DNA from: a phage
Length of the DNA: 44,324 bases
Direction: 5' to 3' (one strand)
Assembly (NCBI GenBank): GCA_026204955.1
Contig: GCA_026204955.1_4545.1
A program made the translations under genes and the position numbers. This document shows, in pieces, positions 10,174 through 44,324 of this stretch. The notes under the pieces were generated by a model. The model saw only the letters and a program-made list of their open reading frames with translations, was not told the origin of the DNA and made no database searches. Each line of letters opens with the position of its first letter. Position 1 is the stretch's first letter.

Positions 10174-10201
10174 GTATTACACCGCTCGATCAAGAATGCA
10201 A
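10174..10201 (-). promoter_or_regulatory. sigma70-like promoter for antisense lipoprotein cassette
   Basis: Reverse strand -35 TTGCAT (10201-10196), 16-nt spacer, -10 TAATAC (10179-10174); extended -35 context AAATTGGTTGCAT shared with other sites. Confidence 0.4.
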
Positions 10202-10222
10202 CCAATTTACGAGGATTTAGCT

Positions 10223-12538
10223 ATGGCAGCGGGTACTCTATCCGTAACGAACAACAGCAAGGCGGTAGTAGGGGTCGGCACGACGTTTACCGCGTTTAAA
10301 GCTGGCGACTTCTTAACGCTGGTGGTAGGACAAGTCCCATACACCGTGGCAATCGCGTCCATTGAAAGCGCAACCGCGCTTACGCTGGTGCTGCCGTTCG
10401 ACGGCCCAACGGCAACCGGCCTCGCGTGGGATGGTGTTAAGCGCGATACCATGTCACTGGCGACGATGGGCGTAACCGTACAGGCGCAGAAAGCGTTGCG
10501 ATTGATGATCTCCGATGAAAACAACTGGCGTGCAATCTTCGGAGACGAAGAAGAAATCTCGATCACGCTGCCGAATGGTCAGGTAATGCAGGGTATGTCG
10601 TGGGGCTACCTGTCGTCTTTGCTGAAGGAAGTAGACCCTGTTGAGATGCGCAACCTGCAACAACAAGCCGCCGCATCTGAAGCCGCCGCGCAAGGATTCC
10701 GCAACGAGGCGGAAGGCTTCAAGAACACCGCGAATACCGCGAAAGACGACGCTGTAACTGCGAAGACCGCGGCTGAAACGGCGCAGGGTAAAGCCGAGAC
10801 AGCTAAAACGGCAGCAGAGTCCGCGAAGACCGCCGCGGAGACAGCTAAATCGCAGGCCGTAACCGCTAAAGACCAGGCTAAAGTATTCCGCGACGAGGCT
10901 GAGGGCTTTGCAAATAGCGCGGACGCAAAAGATAAAGTACCGTATGCTGGTGCGATGTTGGCAACTGCAACTGGAATTGCAGACATGCTCAAGCAGTTGC
11001 GCGATAATGTTAAGGGTGGATTCTGGCGCATCAATGATACATCTCAGTTCCCTGAGGGCGAGATGAAACCTTTTGTACACGGATCAGGTATTTGTGGCGG
11101 TGCTGGGGATACATTCTTTGCTATTAATACTGCTTACCCATATGGGCGAATTAAAGTTTACACGGGTAACAATAGCGCTATCGATGGTACGAGTGGAAGG
11201 GTGGGTGCCCTTGAGTTGGCTGGGCTAGATTCACCCACCTTTACGGGTACAGTGAATGCGCCTAAGATTCGTGTTGGCAATGTTACACTACGGCCCGTAA
11301 CTTCCGGAGAAGGAAGCGGAGACGGGGTTGTTTGGGAATCCCGCAACGCCACGGAGGCAAGTTTTGGCATTGCGAATGTCGGCGGTGGGTCCGCGGTTTT
11401 CCACAACTACTCAAAACCGGCAAACGGATCCGGCGTGGCTACAGGAGTGCTTATTGGGGGGTACGGGTCGCGCCCGTGGACCGGAACGGAATACACAGAC
11501 CATAGTAACGTGTCCCAGCACTTCCTGATGGACGGAACCGCTTCGGCTACTAACCACGGCGGCTGGTTTAGGTTGCTAACAACCCCATTGAATAAGACCA
11601 GCGCCGATCGTAGGCAAACATTCGCGACCAGCAACAACGGCGATTTATATGTTGGGTACGATGTGCCTATGGGGCTTTATAAGCTAACGCAGGAAAGCTA
11701 CAACGGATTGGAATTATTAAACGGTCGCGGTCTTAAACAAGTAAATAACTCGAATAATGAAGTAGCCTTAATCACTCCACGCAATGGGCTAACGGCTAAT
11801 ATAAATTTCAGGGGTGTTGCTTTTGACGGCACAATGACCGGAGCTAAAGGCGCCACTCAGCCGGGCGACAACATGTGGTTATCTTTTGCAGGGCATGACG
11901 GTGTAAGATTCACGGGTGCCGCTGCCGGTATGCGGATTCAGGCGTCGACTGGATGGTCAACCACAAACACGCAATGCGGAATAACGTTTGCGACAACGAA
12001 AGCAGGGTCTACGCAGAGGGTGGACCGGTGGAGTATTACTAGCGACGGGTCCCTGTCCCCCGCGGCTGACAACACATACCCGATCGGCAGCGCCGTTTCC
12101 CGTGTTACCGCAGTCTTCGCAGCAAACGGCGCCATACAGACCTCGGATGCCAGACTCAAGACCGAGGTTAGAGGTTTAACAGAGGCTGAGATGGGTGCCG
12201 CTAAAGAAATCGCCCGCGAGGTTGGTATTTTCCAGTGGCTTGCGCGAGTAGCTGAAGAGGGGGATGAGGCGAGGCTCCATGCCGGTATTACCGTGCAGAA
12301 AGTGATGGAAATCATGAGGTCTTATGGTCTGGACCCCTTGAAGTATGGATTCGTGTGCTACGACGAATGGGAGGAGACTTCAGAGGTTATCAGCGACCCC
12401 GATGATAATTCGAAGTCGACGATAAAGATAACTCCCGCTGGCAATAGGTATAGCTTGCGATATTCGGAACTAAACGTGTTTATCGCCCGAGGACTTGAGC
12501 AAAGAATCTCAGAACTGGAGGCTAAGTTAGCTGGTTGA
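10223..12538 (+). CDS. tail fibre protein with C-terminal intramolecular chaperone (S74-like) domain
   Basis: 771 aa from ATG 10223 (GAGGA RBS); Ala/Lys/Thr-rich heptad-like repeats (AAETAKTAAESAKTAAETAKSQ); C-terminal segment TSDARLKTEV...GLDPLKYGFV resembles the autoproteolytic chaperone domain of phage tail fibres and endosialidases. Confidence 0.7.
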   Translation: MAAGTLSVTNNSKAVVGVGTTFTAFKAGDFLTLVVGQVPYTVAIASIESATALTLVLPFDGPTATGLAWDGVKRDTMSLATMGVTVQAQKALRLMISDENNWRAIFGDEEEISITLPNGQVMQGMSWGYLSSLLKEVDPVEMRNLQQQAAASEAAAQGFRNEAEGFKNTANTAKDDAVTAKTAAETAQGKAETAKTAAESAKTAAETAKSQAVTAKDQAKVFRDEAEGFANSADAKDKVPYAGAMLATATGIADMLKQLRDNVKGGFWRINDTSQFPEGEMKPFVHGSGICGGAGDTFFAINTAYPYGRIKVYTGNNSAIDGTSGRVGALELAGLDSPTFTGTVNAPKIRVGNVTLRPVTSGEGSGDGVVWESRNATEASFGIANVGGGSAVFHNYSKPANGSGVATGVLIGGYGSRPWTGTEYTDHSNVSQHFLMDGTASATNHGGWFRLLTTPLNKTSADRRQTFATSNNGDLYVGYDVPMGLYKLTQESYNGLELLNGRGLKQVNNSNNEVALITPRNGLTANINFRGVAFDGTMTGAKGATQPGDNMWLSFAGHDGVRFTGAAAGMRIQASTGWSTTNTQCGITFATTKAGSTQRVDRWSITSDGSLSPAADNTYPIGSAVSRVTAVFAANGAIQTSDARLKTEVRGLTEAEMGAAKEIAREVGIFQWLARVAEEGDEARLHAGITVQKVMEIMRSYGLDPLKYGFVCYDEWEETSEVISDPDDNSKSTIKITPAGNRYSLRYSELNVFIARGLEQRISELEAKLAG

Positions 12539-13757: not shown

Positions 13758-13779
13758 TGCAACCAACCTATTGGTTGCA
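13758..13779. promoter_or_regulatory. perfect palindromic operator-like site TGCAACCAA-ccta-TTGGTTGCA
   Basis: 22-bp palindrome with 9-bp arms overlapping the stop codon of the HAD-like gene and upstream of the 13704 gene. Confidence 0.5.
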
Positions 13780-14238
13780 AGTGAATTTTGCAACGTTTAT
13801 TGCGTAAATTTTCGGGACCAAATCACCACACGCCCGACGAATTGCCGCGATGTTCTTCTCGCAATCTTCAATGATGACCAGTTCCGACACGTCTGCGTAG
13901 CAGACCATTTTGAACACGGCGCACGCCTTAAACTCTGGCGGCGGTGTGTCGTCCAGCATGTGGCGCATAAACAACCGGCCCACCGGGAAGACCTCCAATT
14001 GCTCGGCGGTGGTGCCCCAACATTCTCGCTGCCGGTTTGTCAGATACGCTATCTCGAAGCCTTGCTCTTTGTACATGCGCAGCAGCGGCAGCATATCCAT
14101 GTTCAGATCTTCGCGTACGTGCGCTTTGTGCCACTTTGCCCAAAATGTTGATTTCGTTTTTATACCCGGAACCAGGTCGGCGCGTGCATCACTCGAACCA
14201 TTAATAACGCCATCAAGATCACAAATCAGTAGTTTCAT
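13768..14238 (-). CDS. HAD-superfamily phosphatase-like protein
   Basis: N-terminal MKLLICDLDGVI matches HAD motif I (DxDG[TV]); 156 aa, size typical of phage nucleotidase/phosphatase-type HAD proteins. Confidence 0.5.
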   Translation of the reverse strand: MKLLICDLDGVINGSSDARADLVPGIKTKSTFWAKWHKAHVREDLNMDMLPLLRMYKEQGFEIAYLTNRQRECWGTTAEQLEVFPVGRLFMRHMLDDTPPPEFKACAVFKMVCYADVSELVIIEDCEKNIAAIRRACGDLVPKIYAINVAKFTCNQ

Positions 14239-14468
14239 TTTAAGCTCTCAATAAGGGTGTATCGGGCGCTGCGCGCGGTGAAGGAGTTGCACACGAAATG
14301 GCAACGCTGAGTCATGACAAGCCAACCGGTGAGGTCAAGGCCCAGGATGTATTCGGGGCGAGACGCGCGCACCACACGATTGCGTCGCGGGTCGATGTTA
14401 TAGTCTCTTTGCATTTGGTCTACGACCGCGGGGTCGCGGTCAACGATTAAGATATTCATGTAACTCAC
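14235..14468 (-). CDS. hypothetical protein
   Basis: 77-aa ORF overlapping the neighbouring genes in an operon; no recognisable motif. Confidence 0.3.
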   Translation of the reverse strand: MSYMNILIVDRDPAVVDQMQRDYNIDPRRNRVVRASRPEYILGLDLTGWLVMTQRCHFVCNSFTARSARYTLIESLK

Positions 14469-15389: not shown

Positions 15390-15416
15390 AAAAAAGGGCG
15401 TCCAAACCGGACACCC
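15390..15416 (-). terminator. rho-independent terminator within leftward operon (after HNH-like gene)
   Basis: Reverse strand reads GGGTGTCC-ggttt-GGACGCCC then T6 (one G-U pair); promoter-like element immediately upstream. Confidence 0.5.
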
Positions 15417-15418
15417 TC

Positions 15419-15447
15419 AATATAATGCAACCTATATGATTATGCAA
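15419..15447 (-). promoter_or_regulatory. sigma70-like internal promoter of leftward operon
   Basis: Reverse strand -35 TTGCAT (15447-15442), 17-nt spacer, -10 TATATT (15424-15419); 17-mer identical to the site at 10196-10212. Confidence 0.45.
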
Positions 15448-15452
15448 CCAAT

Positions 15453-15776
15453 TTACGAATAAAAATTTGGGTCGCGCGCAACGTCTACCAGATACAGGTT
15501 GCTCATGCGGTTGCCGTAGTGCCCTGGAGTGCGCTGGCGGCACACAACGGCGAAGCCTGGAGGGATTGTATGGCCCGTCTCAATAATCCACGCCACGCGT
15601 GCACCAGACAGCGTCTTGCCGTTGCATTCGATGCGCGTGCCGCCATCGGCAGTGTTAAGGTTGCCAATTTTGCAGCCGGTGGACTTCAGACGAATGACGC
15701 CGGTTTTGCTGTCGTAGGAGAATAACTGGTTAGTCATTGCAACCGAAAAATCAATGGCTTCGAATGTAGTATTCAT
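15453..15776 (-). CDS. HNH-family endonuclease-like protein (possibly degenerate)
   Basis: 107 aa; segment AWIIETGHTIPPGFAVVCRQRTPGHYGNRMSNLYLV parallels HNH_3-type homing endonuclease cores (...G..VDHIDGN..NNR..NL.LV). Start ATG overlaps the stop of the upstream extension frame. Confidence 0.4.
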   Translation of the reverse strand: MNTTFEAIDFSVAMTNQLFSYDSKTGVIRLKSTGCKIGNLNTADGGTRIECNGKTLSGARVAWIIETGHTIPPGFAVVCRQRTPGHYGNRMSNLYLVDVARDPNFYS

Positions 15777-16009
15777 TTTAAATTTTCCTCATTGACCGCT
15801 ATCGCGAAGCCGCGCGGGGTGAGCGACCGGATTAATTTTGTGCGGGCTGATTTGCCTCCGAGGCGACTATACTGCTTCGAGTACCCTTTTTCAACGAAAA
15901 CAGGTTTCTTCTCTGGCATACGGAAGCCGTTGCCGGTCCATAAGCAGGTCAGCTTCGGATATGAATCGCGGGCGTTGATGTATTCCGGGAAGAGCGGGTG
16001 TACGTCATC

Positions 16010-16483
16010 CTACGGCAGATATCCCCCATACTCCCACGGGTCGAATGAGTGATCCGGCTTGCGCCACTGGGTGGAAAGCACACTGCGCGGATTCTCAATC
16101 ATATATGGCACTTCGAAGAAGTCACCCAGGTAAGCGGCGATCTTCGCGGTGCGCACCGCCTTAAGCTGAAAGGCTGGGTCTTTAGCTCGCTTGCGCGGGA
16201 AAGCGGGCGCACCGCTCACTGCCAGATCCGTGCACGGAGGAAACGCATAGATGATATCTGGCGTACCGAAATCGCCATTCATCGCACGGTCTACAAAGTC
16301 CAGATCGATAAACTCATTGCGATACCGGATTCCGCGACCATAAATCCGGTAGTCAAGGTAAGACCCGTGATCGGCTTCGGAGTAGTTGAAGCAATAACAC
16401 TTATGCCCCATCTCGGCAGCACGCTCAATCATCAAGCCGCTGCCGTCAAACAACGACCAGATTGTCATTTTAGCAATAGTCAT
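16010..16483 (-). CDS. DNA cytosine-C5 methyltransferase-like protein (N-terminal catalytic motifs; interrupted by in-frame TAG)
   Basis: 157-aa ORF with LFDGSG (motif I-like), FPPC (motif IV PC-like) and ENP (motif VI-like) at spacings typical of C5-methyltransferases. ORF ends at TAG 16012-16010 but the same frame stays open for 78 more codons to TGA 15775-15773. Confidence 0.4.
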   Translation of the reverse strand: MTIAKMTIWSLFDGSGLMIERAAEMGHKCYCFNYSEADHGSYLDYRIYGRGIRYRNEFIDLDFVDRAMNGDFGTPDIIYAFPPCTDLAVSGAPAFPRKRAKDPAFQLKAVRTAKIAAYLGDFFEVPYMIENPRSVLSTQWRKPDHSFDPWEYGGYLP

Positions 16484-18384: not shown

Positions 18385-18663
18385 CTATGCGACCAATTCA
18401 GCAACCAATAAATCGCAGTCGGATATGTTGTCGATGACGCGAACGTCAGCACCGCGGCGGACCATTCGCTCATGCTCACGTACCTGGTGCGGCTTCGGTT
18501 TTCCACCGGGGCGCTTCACTTCGACGAACACTATTTTGCCGTTGATTATAATAATCAGGTCGGGCGCACCCGCGCGCCCCTCCCATGCCAGTTTTCGGCA
18601 GAATCCGCCGACCTCTTTCACCCGTTTCATAAGGTGACTTTGAATCTTGCCTTCTGGCGTCAT
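18385..18663 (-). CDS. VRR-NUC domain nuclease
   Basis: 92 aa; GAPDLIII..GKIVFVEVKRPGGK...Q..E matches the VRR-NUC PD-(D/E)XK pattern (D...E.K). Confidence 0.6.
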   Translation of the reverse strand: MTPEGKIQSHLMKRVKEVGGFCRKLAWEGRAGAPDLIIIINGKIVFVEVKRPGGKPKPHQVREHERMVRRGADVRVIDNISDCDLLVAELVA

Positions 18664-22022: not shown

Positions 22023-22047
22023 CTTGGTTGCTAATCTACTTGGTTGC
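22023..22047. repeat. direct repeat CTTGGTTGC x2 (16-bp periodicity) upstream of DUF2815-like gene
   Basis: CTTGGTTGC at 22023-22031 and 22039-22047 in the intergenic leader. Confidence 0.45.
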
Positions 22048-22057
22048 GCCTGAGCGG

Positions 22058-24923: not shown

Positions 24924-24953
24924 ATAATAGATTGGTTGCAGGATGGGTGTCAA
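24924..24953 (-). promoter_or_regulatory. leftward early promoter
   Basis: Reverse strand -35 TTGACA (24953-24948), 18-nt spacer, -10 TATTAT (24929-24924), upstream of acidic-repeat protein gene. Confidence 0.45.
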
Positions 24954-24964
24954 CAACTAATTTC

Positions 24965-25000
24965 AAAAAAAAAAGCGCCGAGGCAAAATGCGACGGCGCT
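24965..25000 (-). terminator. terminator-like hairpin with T10 on the reverse strand, upstream of the leftward promoter
   Basis: Reverse strand AGCGCCG-(13-nt loop)-CGGCGCT followed by T10; on the + strand the hairpin lacks a U-tract. Confidence 0.4.
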
Positions 25001-25070
25001 AACCAATAAGAGACAATGAGACGGGAATAATTATTACACGCGTGCGCGCCCGTTTCAATATCCAAAGGAT

Positions 25071-25099
25071 TTGACACCGTGCAGTTTTGGGTGTAGTTT
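25071..25099 (+). promoter_or_regulatory. rightward early promoter
   Basis: -35 TTGACA (25071-25076), 17-nt spacer, -10 TAGTTT (25094-25099), 32 nt upstream of the HTH gene. Confidence 0.4.
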
Positions 25100-25130
25100 C
25101 GTTGGTCATTAACCAACTGAGGGCAGAGCA

Positions 25131-25460
25131 ATGAATGTAAACGACGCAATCGAAATGTTAACGAAGACTGTTTGCAGTGAGACAAGCCGGTCATGGGCTT
25201 ATACAGATGCCGTGGGGGCGGTGTTATTTGAAATCGAACGTCTGCGCAGTGTCGAAAAAGAATTGCGCGCGAAGCTGGAATTACTCAACGGTACGGCGGC
25301 CAGCAAGCTGCAAAAGCACAATGAAGAAATGGAAGAATACAAAAAACAGGTTATCCGTTTGCGCGCCGAGGGAAAATCGTGGGCGATGATTGCCGAGTTG
25401 ACCGGAATTAATCAGAGCACAGTGCGCTCCTGGGTACGCAATAATAAAACTTCTAAGTAA
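25131..25460 (+). CDS. HTH-domain DNA-binding protein (putative regulator)
   Basis: 109 aa; coiled-coil-like N-terminal region; C-terminal helix-turn-helix GKSWAMIAELTGINQSTVRSWVRN; first gene of rightward operon downstream of TTGACA-17-TAGTTT promoter. Confidence 0.5.
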   Translation: MNVNDAIEMLTKTVCSETSRSWAYTDAVGAVLFEIERLRSVEKELRAKLELLNGTAASKLQKHNEEMEEYKKQVIRLRAEGKSWAMIAELTGINQSTVRSWVRNNKTSK

Positions 25461-27735: not shown

Positions 27736-27841
27736 ATTCTGCGCGTATTGGTTGCCATTTTGGGTGTTTTTAACTGGTCGCATTGGTTGCCGTGTAGTGT
27801 AAATATAGTGAATAGTTATGCAGTTTTATTGCATAAAGTAA

Positions 27842-27944
27842 GCGGGACAAAAAGCGGGACAAACAAGGGGCGGGACAAAGCGGGATAGCACCCCAGTCCC
27901 GCCCCGGATGACGCGGCCTGGAGAGGAGCGGGACAAGCGGGACA
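27842..27944. repeat. iteron array A: GCGGGACA repeats (ori-like region downstream of primase/helicase)
   Basis: GCGGGACA at 27842, 27854, 27870, 27928, 27937; variant GCGGGATA at 27880; inverted GTCCCGCC at 27896-27903. Confidence 0.6.
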
Positions 27945-28158
27945 AACCCCAGTCTTTCAGACTAGACGGGGGTCAACGGCCCCCCTCGTCTGAGACTGCA
28001 TAAAATCCGGGGATTGCAAAATACACGGCAGCATGATGCGTATTGCGGTCGTTGATGAACTAGGCAACCAATGCGGGTTGCATTATGCTGAGTGAAAAAT
28101 GCAGTTTGCAGTCACAGCAGATAGCGATCAACTTTTTCATGCGCGTGATTAATATTGG

Positions 28159-28187
28159 TTGCATTCACCCCGGCACCCTGCTATATT
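28159..28187 (+). promoter_or_regulatory. promoter for 28216 operon
   Basis: -35 TTGCAT (28159-28164) within ATTGGTTGCAT, 17-nt spacer, -10 TATATT (28182-28187); a second ATTGGTTGCA overlaps the -10 and start region. Confidence 0.45.
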
Positions 28188-28215
28188 GGTTGCACACCAA
28201 CATGAGGACTGAACA

Positions 28216-28551: not shown

Positions 28552-28821
28552 ATGAACCGTAGACGCGCAAAACAGCTTTCGTGGCATATTCCCCTGCATT
28601 GCATACGAATATGGGCTGAGAATGCGAATGCGGGGGACTCTGTGTACTGGTGCTATCGCAACGACGTTAAGCCGTTGACGCAGACTCGCTACTTGCACCA
28701 GTTCGCAGCGCAACACGATTTCAGGGTGCGGACTTCCTTGCAACCAATGGGGACCCGTATTACATTACGCCGGAAGCCCGCCGTTGAGCGGGTAGGCAAA
28801 CACTGGAGACTGGCAAAATGA
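28552..28821 (+). CDS. hypothetical protein
   Basis: 89-aa ORF, basic, 9 nt after upstream stop. Confidence 0.35.
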   Translation: MNRRRAKQLSWHIPLHCIRIWAENANAGDSVYWCYRNDVKPLTQTRYLHQFAAQHDFRVRTSLQPMGTRITLRRKPAVERVGKHWRLAK

Positions 28822-31558: not shown

Positions 31559-31564
31559 TGAGCA

Positions 31565-31589
31565 AGCCCGCCGTATTGGCGGGCTTTTT
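31565..31589 (+). terminator. rho-independent terminator after lysis module
   Basis: AGCCCGCC-gtattg-GCGGGCT followed by TTTTT. Confidence 0.6.
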
Positions 31590-31676
31590 ATTGTTCGACC
31601 TGCGACCAATTAATAGCCCATACTGCGGTCGCCGTGGTATATTGACCGCGGACAATCTGAATCAGGAAGATATGCA

Positions 31677-37956: not shown

Positions 37957-38469
37957 CTACAAACGCATCGGCTTGATAACAAGGAAGGCACCGCCTTTGA
38001 AAAGCACACGTGTCGCCTTGTCTACTCCCTGAAATTCCAGTTTTAAGCTATCAAACTTACGGTCGAACAATTTAGCAATTTTGCAGGCGTCGGACAGGTA
38101 TTCCCCGGCAAACCCTATAGCCTCCACTTTAGCGCTGTCGAAAGACGTAACTCTACGCCAGTCTGGGAATCGGCCGTCTACGATCTCTACGGGTATGGTA
38201 CCGATTAATACGTCTTTACTATCAAAGAACGCAGCGGATGTGCCGTCTATGTTGCAGTATTCGAATTTAGTAGGTAAGCGGCCTTTAATTGCTACTATTT
38301 TACTTTCACCTTCGGGAACAACCGCGGACCCGCAGAACAAACGATGACCGTCGGTGGCCACGATGAATCCTTTCTCGTCGAAAAACACACCATTCAGATA
38401 GTACCGCACGTCATTAGTTGCGGCGCACATCATAGCGGCTTTAAGATCGGCATAGTTAACTTTAATCAT
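37957..38469 (-). CDS. truncated DNA polymerase III beta sliding-clamp (DnaN) homologue
   Basis: Preferred ATG 38469 (GAGGA RBS) within track ORF 37957-38601. Segments [41 protein letters not shown] and C-terminal LVIKPMRL recalled to match E. coli DnaN [42 protein letters not shown] and C-terminal VVMPMRL; only about 169 aa versus about 366 aa. Confidence 0.6.
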   Translation of the reverse strand: [170 protein letters not shown]

Positions 38470-38490
38470 TGTCATTTCCTCATGTTGGTA

Positions 38491-38514
38491 TGCAACCAAT
38501 ATATTGCAACCAAT
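38491..38514. repeat. tandem TGCAACCAAT x2 in divergent region between clamp-like and scaffold genes
   Basis: TGCAACCAAT at 38491-38500 and 38505-38514, adjacent to the RBS of the clamp-like gene. Confidence 0.45.
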
Positions 38515-38533
38515 CCACCAATGCAAGCAAATT

Positions 38534-38561
38534 TTGCGATTATTTTTATCGCTGATAATAT
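38534..38561 (+). promoter_or_regulatory. promoter for scaffold/capsid genes
   Basis: -35 TTGCGA (38534-38539), 16-nt spacer, -10 TAATAT (38556-38561). Confidence 0.35.
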
Positions 38562-44042: not shown

Positions 44043-44046
44043 TGAG

Positions 44047-44312
44047 GCGGGACAGGCGGGACGTCCCCGTTTCGTCCCGCTTGTCCCGCCCCTGTAAAAC
44101 TGCATACTTACTCACTTTATTTGCTTAAATTAAAAGCGGGACAGGCGGGACGTCCCGGTCCGACACCCCCTGAAAAGTGCTTACTTATGCATTTTTAGTG
44201 CATAAAACAAACGGGACAAAAAGCGGGACAGACCAGGGGCGGGACAAATCGGGACGTCCCGCCGTCCCCATCAGTGTTGCCGGGGGTTTCAGCCGATCGG
44301 GACAGCGGGACA
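44047..44312. repeat. iteron array B: GCGGGACA / GGGACGTCCC repeats, paralogous to array A
   Basis: GCGGGACA at 44047, 44136, 44223, 44239, 44305 plus variants; palindromes GGGACGTCCC at 44058, 44147, 44251; inverted TGTCCCGCC at 44082-44090; block 44205-44324 aligns with 27830-27950. Confidence 0.6.
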
Positions 44313-44324
44313 ACACCCCAGTCT

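Follow-up and report, generated by a model that had tools for sequence, protein, structure and literature searches.

The word and the genome that carries it

The intergenic region at this locus holds one copy of a short recurrent word, placed within a predicted promoter:

10197..10206, minus strand: motif copy ATTGGTTGCA, with a predicted -35 element TTGCAT (10201->10196) and a predicted -10 element AATACT (10178->10173); the promoter would read leftward and serve a lipoprotein gene and a DUF6453 gene, and the copy is invariant in 4 genomes

The copy overlaps the ATG that opens a long ORF, and since the tail fibre homologues begin at 10223 it is intergenic. The window (the whole 44.3-kb stretch of DNA that was analysed) is ~90% identical to Dhillonvirus coliphages such as Oekolampad, SO-1, EK99P-1 and PC2, and its gene order is collinear with a whole Dhillonvirus genome; judged by its sequence, it is a near-complete Dhillonvirus (HK578/JL1-like) genome. 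Placing the Oekolampad proteins on the window via tblastn gave the following gene map:

31677, across the window ends, to 8924, rightward: late block, from the metallophosphatase gene hyp65 to the end of the tail-tip gene
32851: small terminase gene, within the rightward late block
25109 to 12565, leftward: replication, recombination and methylase block
25131 onwards, rightward: block that begins with the gene at 25131 (109 aa) and continues with the primase-helicase, small genes and lysis genes
25131..25460, plus strand: 109-aa helix-turn-helix (HTH) protein, first gene of the rightward early operon and candidate binder of the word

Coding sequence takes up ~41.7 kb and non-coding DNA about 2.2-2.3 kb (5%) of the window, in which Rfam found no known RNA family. 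Neither the gene map nor the annotations of relatives contain an integrase, a lysogeny module or an immunity repressor, and members of the genus have been isolated as lytic phages; relatives of the window phage infect several enterobacterial hosts. Dhillonviruses are frequent in coliphage collections (BASEL, SECphi phages) and among therapy isolates, and the literature that we searched held no description of their transcription programme and nothing relevant on the motif or on Dhillonvirus/HK578 promoters, transcriptomes or transcription starts.

The original prediction described a 17-mer, ATGCAACCAATTTACGA, repeated at 10196-10212 and 15442-15458, as part of a recurrent intergenic promoter/operator word. 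Both exact copies were found, and they are the only ones in the window even when 3 mismatches are allowed (0.13 expected); the reverse-strand -35 and -10 elements proposed for them are likewise present, as TTGCAT-17-AATACT (or 16-TAATAC) at 10201->10173 and TTGCAT-17-TATATT at 15447->15419. Relatives keep only the AAATTGGTTGCA part of the 17-mer, the TCGT part being common to both copies in the window phage only. The shorter word TTGGTTGCA has 10 exact copies in the window (10197-, 13758-, 13771+, 15443-, 24932+, 28155+, 28186+, 28739-, 38491- and 38505-, the sign giving the strand), where 0.39 were expected and none of 100 shuffles yielded more than 2, and 28 matches with one mismatch, compared with 11.9 expected. 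In an unbiased k-mer comparison of non-coding with coding DNA, TTGGTTGC was the 8-mer most enriched in non-coding DNA, with 13 copies in ~2.2 kb of non-coding and 4 in ~41.7 kb of coding sequence (Fisher p = 2e-14), that is, at a ~60-fold greater density. The rarity in coding DNA on which the prediction was to be judged is thus borne out, and its statement that all copies are intergenic needs qualifying: 13771-13779 and 28739 lie in genes, and so do two variant copies that it did not list (18388 and 18400). The supposed perfect palindrome at 13758-13779 is a 9+9 inverted repeat whose 4-nt centre is not palindromic, and the inverted repeat placed at 28054-28071 exists with its true arms, GCAACC/GGTTGC, at 28064-28069 and 28076-28081.

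Alignment of 19 copies gave the 10-base consensus A-TTGGTTGC-A, with the flanking A at position -1 in 15 of the 19 and at position +9 in 13. The invariant core is ATTGGTTGC, the base after GCA is variable, and the 10-mer has no internal dyad symmetry. A position weight matrix found 21 matches of at least 12 bits where 3.2 were expected, 15 of them in the 5% non-coding DNA, a count that is partly circular as the matrix was built from 19 of the same sites. A search of IMG/VR for pairs of the form ATTGGTTGC-N4-34-ATTGGTTGC, which is an unspecific query, returned mostly unrelated contigs with tandem arrays; among these, contigs L028, L036, L069 and others from unrelated viruses carry arrays of 54-bp period that contain ATTGGTTGC.

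Registers of the word in predicted promoters

The regulatory regions were aligned on their -10 hexamers, and the motif was found inside almost every early/middle promoter of the window phage and its relatives. The sites in the window other than that at 10197 are:

13758..13779, both strands: inverted pair TGCAACCAA-ccta-TTGGTTGCA, invariant in relatives; the minus-strand copy at 13758 ends 1 nt before a -10 TATAGT (13756->13751)
13780->13775, minus strand: palindromic TTGCAA, a predicted -35 element 18 nt from the TATAGT -10
13771-13779, plus strand: arm of the inverted pair that overlaps the final codons of the phosphatase gene
15426..15451, minus strand: two direct copies, TTGGTTGCA (15443-15451) in the -35 register and TAGGTTGCA (15426-15434) ending 1 nt before a -10 TATATT (15424->15419)
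18400-18408, minus strand: TTGGTTGCT in the -35 register, TTGCTG-17-TATAGT, with the -10 at 18381->18376
18388-18396, minus strand: TTGGTCGCA in the spacer of the promoter with that -10
22024..22048, plus strand: two copies inverted against the leftward promoter TTGACC (22061->22056)-17-TAGATT (22038->22033), one in the spacer and ending 1 nt before the -10, the other beginning 1 nt past it
24932..24940, plus strand: inverted copy in the spacer of the leftward near-consensus promoter TTGACA (24953->24948)-18-TATTAT (24929->24924)
25071..25099, plus strand: predicted promoter of the HTH gene, TTGACA (25071-25076), 17 nt, TAGTTT (25094-25099)
25102-25110 and 25109-25116, plus strand: degenerate pair past the HTH-gene promoter, TTGGTCATT and TTAACCAA
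27748..27791, plus strand: two TTGGTTGCC copies, at 27748 and 27783, with a weak CTGGTCGCA at 27774
28063-28071, minus strand: GGCAACCAA, facing a partial GGTTGCA (28076-28082)
28155-28163, plus strand: motif supplying a -35 TTGCAT, followed by a 17-nt spacer and a -10 TATATT (28182-28187)
28186-28194, plus strand: second motif, overlapping the -10/+1 of that promoter
28739..28747, minus strand: copy inside an 89-aa gene (28552-28821), kept in Oekolampad, CHD5UKE2 and JL1 even with differing flanks
31601..31609, minus strand: variant TTGGTCGCA, inverted relative to the rightward genes and past the terminator at 31564-31586
38491..38530, minus strand: three direct copies in the predicted promoter of a leftward beta-clamp-like gene (37957-38469)
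38522-38530, minus strand: first of these, TTGCTTGCA, supplying a -35 TTGCAT
38505-38513, minus strand: second, TTGGTTGCA, ending 1 nt before a -10 TATATT (38503->38498)
38491-38499, minus strand: third, TTGGTTGCA, overlapping the -10/+1

Two arrangements recur among these sites. In the first, forward copies supply a TTGCAT or TTGCTG -35 element 17 nt before a TATATT, TATAGT or AATACT -10 element, and exactly 18 nt separate the motif end from the -10 in five promoters, which start at 10205(-), 15451(-), 18408(-), 28155(+) and 38530(-). These promoters often have a second or third copy, which either ends 1 nt before the -10 (15426, 38505, 13758) or overlaps the -10/+1 as TATATTGGTTGCA (28186, 38491). 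In the second arrangement, promoters with a near-consensus TTGAC(A/C) -35 (24953->24924 and 22061->22033) carry inverted copies in the spacer or just past the -10. Altogether, nine gene-facing promoters have the sigma-70-type form TTGnnn, 16-18 nt, TAnnnT, the -35 being derived from the motif in P10205, P13780, P15451, P18408, P28155 and P38530 and close to consensus in P22061, P24953 and P25071.

Individual regions differ in detail. The promoter at 15426..15451 reads into the 5' arm of a terminator hairpin (15418->15394). The 3' end of the VRR-NUC gene contains the copies at 18388 and 18400, which are conserved across 11 unique sequences. The leftward promoter at 22061->22033 would serve the SSB and DNA polymerase genes, and divergent relatives have two tandem copies at the 24932 locus and a full GCAACCAA ~10 nt past the -10 of the HTH-gene promoter. 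The copies at 27748 and 27783 precede a -10 TATAGT (27804-27809) that reads into a GGGACA-repeat element, with a gap of 12 nt between motif and -10; in some relatives a 54-nt duplication adds a third copy to this region. The segment 28155..28194 is the predicted promoter of the rightward small-gene/lysis operon, and its motifs are invariant while its spacer varies. The copy at 31601..31609 precedes an extended -10, TGgTATATT (hexamer 31638-31643), by 28 nt, and relatives have one or two full copies there. No strong copy was found between the genes of the late structural operon; the two accessory units that are read against it (10205 and 38530) carry the motif.

When 274 unique contexts of the motif, drawn from 22 genomes or loci, were compared, -10-like hexamers were most frequent at offsets of 18, 1, 12 and -4, with the peak at 18 dominating among forward copies. 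On their own strand, the inverted copies all lack a -10 hexamer (A at position 2, T at position 6) in the 18-nt register, indicating that they are not -35 boxes, and since they cannot be -35 elements an operator for a DNA-binding protein is favoured over a pure promoter consensus. The simplest competing account is that the word is an extended -35 element (ATTGG + TTGCA) read directly by host sigma-70 RNA polymerase, its other copies being leftovers of promoter duplication. The prominence of offset 18 among forward copies, the identical TTGCAT/TTGCTG-17-TAnAnT geometry of five gene-facing promoters and the critical part that TTG plays in the -35 element are what such an account would lead one to expect. 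We nevertheless regard it as unlikely: neither the inverted copies in the TTGACA/TTGACC spacers nor the copies over the -10/+1 have a -10 in register, TTGCA is no more invariant than the upstream ATTGG, a part that sigma region 4 does not read, and TTGCAT agrees with the consensus at only 3 of 6 positions.

Conservation of the word and a candidate regulator

Copies of TTGGTTGC stand at orthologous places in relatives, 21 in Oekolampad, 20 in CHD5UKE2 and 18 in JL1. When eight regulatory regions were aligned, variation affected 11 of the 135 columns within the motif and 385 of the 1269 outside it (p = 3e-9), which points to purifying selection on the motif relative to its flanks; the aligned genomes are close relatives without phylogenetic independence, and the test is indicative rather than strict. 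In two divergent metagenomic relatives, whose HTH protein is 59-66% identical and whose flanks are largely different and unalignable, both the word and the 18-nt register are kept, as are the places of the promoters, and the number and spacing of extra copies change. The fixed registers to -10 hexamers in ~10 regulatory regions, together with the difference from the flanks and the conservation throughout the clade, speak for the original prediction of a promoter/operator word.

Salmonella phage vB_SenTO17, whose primase-helicase is 43% identical, is the closest syntenic outgroup. Its 14-kb syntenic stretch contains one TTGGTTGC and no dominant intergenic word, a phage-wide tblastn search gave no match to the HTH protein, and a different small DNA-binding gene occupies the place that corresponds to the HTH gene. 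The word and the HTH protein therefore co-occur, both being absent from the outgroup stretch and search bar the one TTGGTTGC; this comparison is with one phage. Three leaders in the window (25112-25130, 28195-28215 and 38470-38490) have ACCAAC(A)TGAGGR-N7-ATG in common, and vB_SenTO17, which lacks the motif, has the similar leader ACCAAC(A/G)GAGGAG, so that the leader is independent of the motif. For the same reason, the occurrence of ACCAAC(A)nGAGGA in a phage lacking the motif, we rejected the TTGGT-N5-ACCAA dyads of the three leaders as a palindromic operator; their ACCAA half is probably a leader or Shine-Dalgarno feature.

The product of 25131-25460, the HTH protein named in the original prediction, is the sole recognisable HTH protein among 32 non-structural proteins searched with Pfam and PHROGs. 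Its N-terminus is hypervariable and is followed by a long coiled-coil helix and, at the C-terminus, by an HTH of the HTH_23 / Sigma70_r4_2 type (HTH_23, E = 2e-7; Sigma70_r4_2, 27.7 bits at a cut-off of 25.7), and an AlphaFold model (pLDDT 83) shows one long helix followed by a three-helix HTH. Fold searches with the model returned generic HTH matches only (LuxR/GerE, IstA, resolvase), all with E > 0.4, and a sequence profile search of the PDB with the protein gave nothing informative. The database labels 'transposase', 'resolvase' and 'Gam' that it carries were set aside, as no catalytic domain supports them. The family is limited to Dhillonvirus-like phages, with 155 phage records and 24 clusters in 5.8 billion proteins. 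Residues ~47 to 106 are almost invariant, comprising the long helix and then LELLNGTAASKL...EGKSWAMIAELTGINxSTVRSWVRN, while the N-terminal ~45 residues (25131-25265) are hypervariable across relatives and are replaced in CHD5UKE2 by a longer unrelated segment; the hypervariability may reflect diversifying selection. An invariant HTH is thus matched by an invariant DNA word, and we saw no co-variation of protein and site: the recognition helix of CHD5UKE2 differs at several residues (INRSTIRQWAK compared with INQSTVRSWVR), and CHD5UKE2 uses the same word.

We conclude with moderate confidence that the word constitutes a set of dispersed asymmetric operators, probably occupied by a phage regulator for which the 109-aa HTH protein is the candidate. 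The operators would form part of the core elements (-35, spacer, -10/+1) in sigma-70-type promoters that are read by host RNA polymerase and drive early/middle genes and opposite-strand accessory genes, so that one phage regulator acting at ~20 asymmetric sites could coordinate all motif promoters at once; the most likely regulator is the coiled-coil + HTH protein of 25131-25460. Sites in spacers or over the -10/+1 should block RNA polymerase, the site just past the promoter of the regulator's own gene would provide autoregulation, and the blocked promoters would bring about early shut-off. The five to six promoters with a weak, motif-supplied TTGCAT -35 may be repressed, or activated as a later class. 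At 15451 the promoter overlaps the 5' arm of the terminator (15418-15394), so transcripts that start there would lack the full hairpin and could escape termination, while read-through transcripts would stop. What is observed directly is the non-random occurrence of the word, its fixed promoter registers, its conservation and its co-occurrence with the HTH protein; that a protein binds, which protein it is, in which direction it regulates and where transcripts start we infer from these patterns. Points against this reading include the irregular spacing of paired copies (9 to 35 bp), which is unusual for a dimeric HTH protein, the changes in the CHD5UKE2 recognition helix without a change of word, and the form TTGCAT-17-TATATT, which could serve as a plain sigma-70 promoter without any factor. 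Phage operator words embedded in promoters are a well-known type of element, and the present one is ordinary in this respect and useful for annotation and engineering: it maps ~10 promoter/operator regions with their transcription units, names a candidate master regulator and offers compact engineering parts for Dhillonviruses, namely a 10-bp operator and its candidate cognate protein.

The same protein could act in the opposite sense, redirecting RNA polymerase to the motif promoters by replacing or assisting -35 recognition, much as T4 MotA or lambda CII do, with early repression as a secondary effect. Such a positive factor would suit the weak -35 boxes, a register that is strictly fixed and centres the motif near -35.5, the inverted copies that closely precede candidate late promoters (31638 and about 38534-38561), and a Sigma70_r4_2 score above the Pfam threshold. 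It is quite unlikely all the same, because additional copies at the same promoters stand in the spacer or over +1, positions from which a bound protein should impede polymerase, the Pfam scans (all matches with E <= 0.01) reported no MotA or AsiA family, and the HTH matches are generic. More speculative still is a scheme in which the HTH, being like sigma region 4, stands in as a surrogate -35 reader, steering host RNA polymerase towards ATTGGTTGCA promoters and, through the spacer sites, silencing consensus early promoters, the N-terminus being in an arms race with host polymerase or a defence sensor; we think this improbable, but if surrogate -35 reading were true it would amount to a one-protein temporal switch of a virulent siphovirus.

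A host protein exploited by the phage, be it a transcription factor or a nucleoid protein of the Enterobacterales, is a similarly improbable occupant of the sites. The phages do infect several enterobacterial hosts, the phage-encoded binder is so far only a candidate, and the word bears a partial likeness to the CytR half-site GTTGCATT and to NtrC TGCACCA-N3-TGGTGCA; yet the invariant core ATTGGTTGC, with a variable base after GCA, does not match the CytR or NtrC consensus, the word is missing as an intergenic word from 14 kb of vB_SenTO17, whose host is closely related, and it co-occurs with a clade-specific HTH protein. The consensus sequences for sigma-54, CytR, NtrC, UxuR/ExuR and IHF were all discarded as misfits to the invariant core, and a role of the motif at the RNA level was dropped on the grounds that both orientations occur and that copies lie mostly upstream of predicted starts. 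Finally, that the repeats are functionless remnants of duplicated promoter/leader cassettes is hardly credible, since, despite the longer module TATATTGGTTGCAyACCAACATGAGGA that P(28155) and P(38530) have in common and the 54-nt duplication with a motif copy in some relatives, motif columns are conserved while intervening spacers diverge, copies occur in both orientations with unrelated flanks, and divergent relatives keep the word without the surrounding sequence.

Known phage operators and neighbouring elements

Taken as dispersed operators, the sites most resemble two systems of temperate phages. The C1 repressor of phage P1 maintains lysogeny from dispersed asymmetric 17-bp operators at many promoters, and the likeness lies in an asymmetric site in more than 10 scattered copies, single or paired, of variable spacing and orientation, which overlap the promoters of many operons and are controlled by one phage protein (here presumed to control all sites). 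The present site is 10 bp rather than 17 bp long, has no sequence similarity to that of P1 and belongs to a virulent phage in which the binder is only a candidate. The gp71 stoperators of mycobacteriophage L5, a temperate phage, are 13-bp asymmetric intergenic sites that are oriented with transcription and block elongation; they too occur as many short asymmetric copies in short intergenic spaces and are conserved across related phages, whereas the present sites occur in both orientations and in fixed core-promoter registers. With 17 TTGGTTGC copies, 13 of them in ~5% non-coding DNA, the motif has the layout of dispersed asymmetric operators, and a part in maintaining lysogeny of the P1 C1 / L5 gp71 type does not apply to it. 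Given the lack of an integrase and immunity repressor and the lytic nature of the genus, the motif works like P1 C1 / L5 gp71 operators but is not a member of that family.

The operators of lambda Cro are palindromic and clustered at two loci, and the sites of phi29 p4 are inverted repeats at one regulatory region. The motif shares with both a small DNA-binding protein of an early operon (here a candidate), sites over early promoters and perhaps beside later ones, and a site at the regulator's own promoter; it differs in that its asymmetric sites extend over ~10 regions. T4 MotA boxes (TTTGCTTTA-like) are centred at -30, 11-13 bp from the -10, and lambda CII sites are a direct repeat TTGC-N6-TTGC straddling the -35. 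As in these systems, a phage-specific word that contains TTGC takes the place of a good -35 and keeps a constant distance to an ordinary -10. The motif differs from the MotA box in sequence, lies 18 nt from the -10 and is centred near -35.5, the sites read TTGGTTGCA and lack a further TTGC at a conserved 6-nt distance, and Pfam scans of 30 proteins (all matches with E <= 0.01) showed no MotA, AsiA or CII family. Nor does the word have the form of a sigma-54 promoter (GG-N10-GC, TGGCAC-N5-TTGCA, -24/-12), its GG-GC gap being 3 nt and a sigma-70-type -10 standing at 18 nt.

Several other elements of the window were recorded in passing. At 15394-15424 (-), the predicted -10 adjoins the 5' arm of a strong intrinsic terminator, which resembles a promoter embedded in a terminator. 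At 24975-25058 (-), a hairpin + T10 terminator comes within ~50 nt after a leftward promoter (25058->25030) of the form TTGAAA-17-AATAAT with an upstream TG; what is annotated as a 36-aa ORF (24999-25109) may in fact represent a short early RNA or attenuator. The 54-nt duplication of some relatives (L001 38611-38665, L009, L012, L013, L016 and L017, in the region homologous to 27736-27750) also adds a palindrome, ATATGGGAATTCCCATAT. An element of ~190 bp occurs twice per genome, at 27796-27995 and 44165-44324 (also 44046-44090 and 44137-44160), in copies 77% identical that are composed of CGGGACA-unit arrays, a GTCTTTCAGAC hairpin and a covarying GGGGG...CCCCC hairpin. Annotations of relatives place small hypothetical proteins there, and the window copy has an in-frame stop and 1-nt inter-unit indels that shift the frame; the element is probably non-coding (origin iterons, or RNA), and Rfam gave no match to it. 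The 21-bp imperfect palindrome TTATGCAGTTTTATTGCATAA at 27816-27836 is present in many relatives as its exact reverse complement, TTATGCAATAAAACTGCATAA, indicating that this segment flips between phages.

Two further genes of the leftward block deserve mention. Ksap1, the Dhillonvirus protein that triggers the KpAvs2 defence (PMC11564622), has its counterpart, judged from location and length (74 aa), in the gene at 14235-14459 (-), which is flanked by those for the Dam methylase and the phosphatase; an identification of Ksap1 with the HTH protein was rejected, the two being different proteins. The gene for a Dcm-like C5 cytosine methyltransferase at 15776-16483 (-), which is 99% identical to that of Oekolampad, has an internal stop near 16010 that marks either a pseudogene or a sequencing error.
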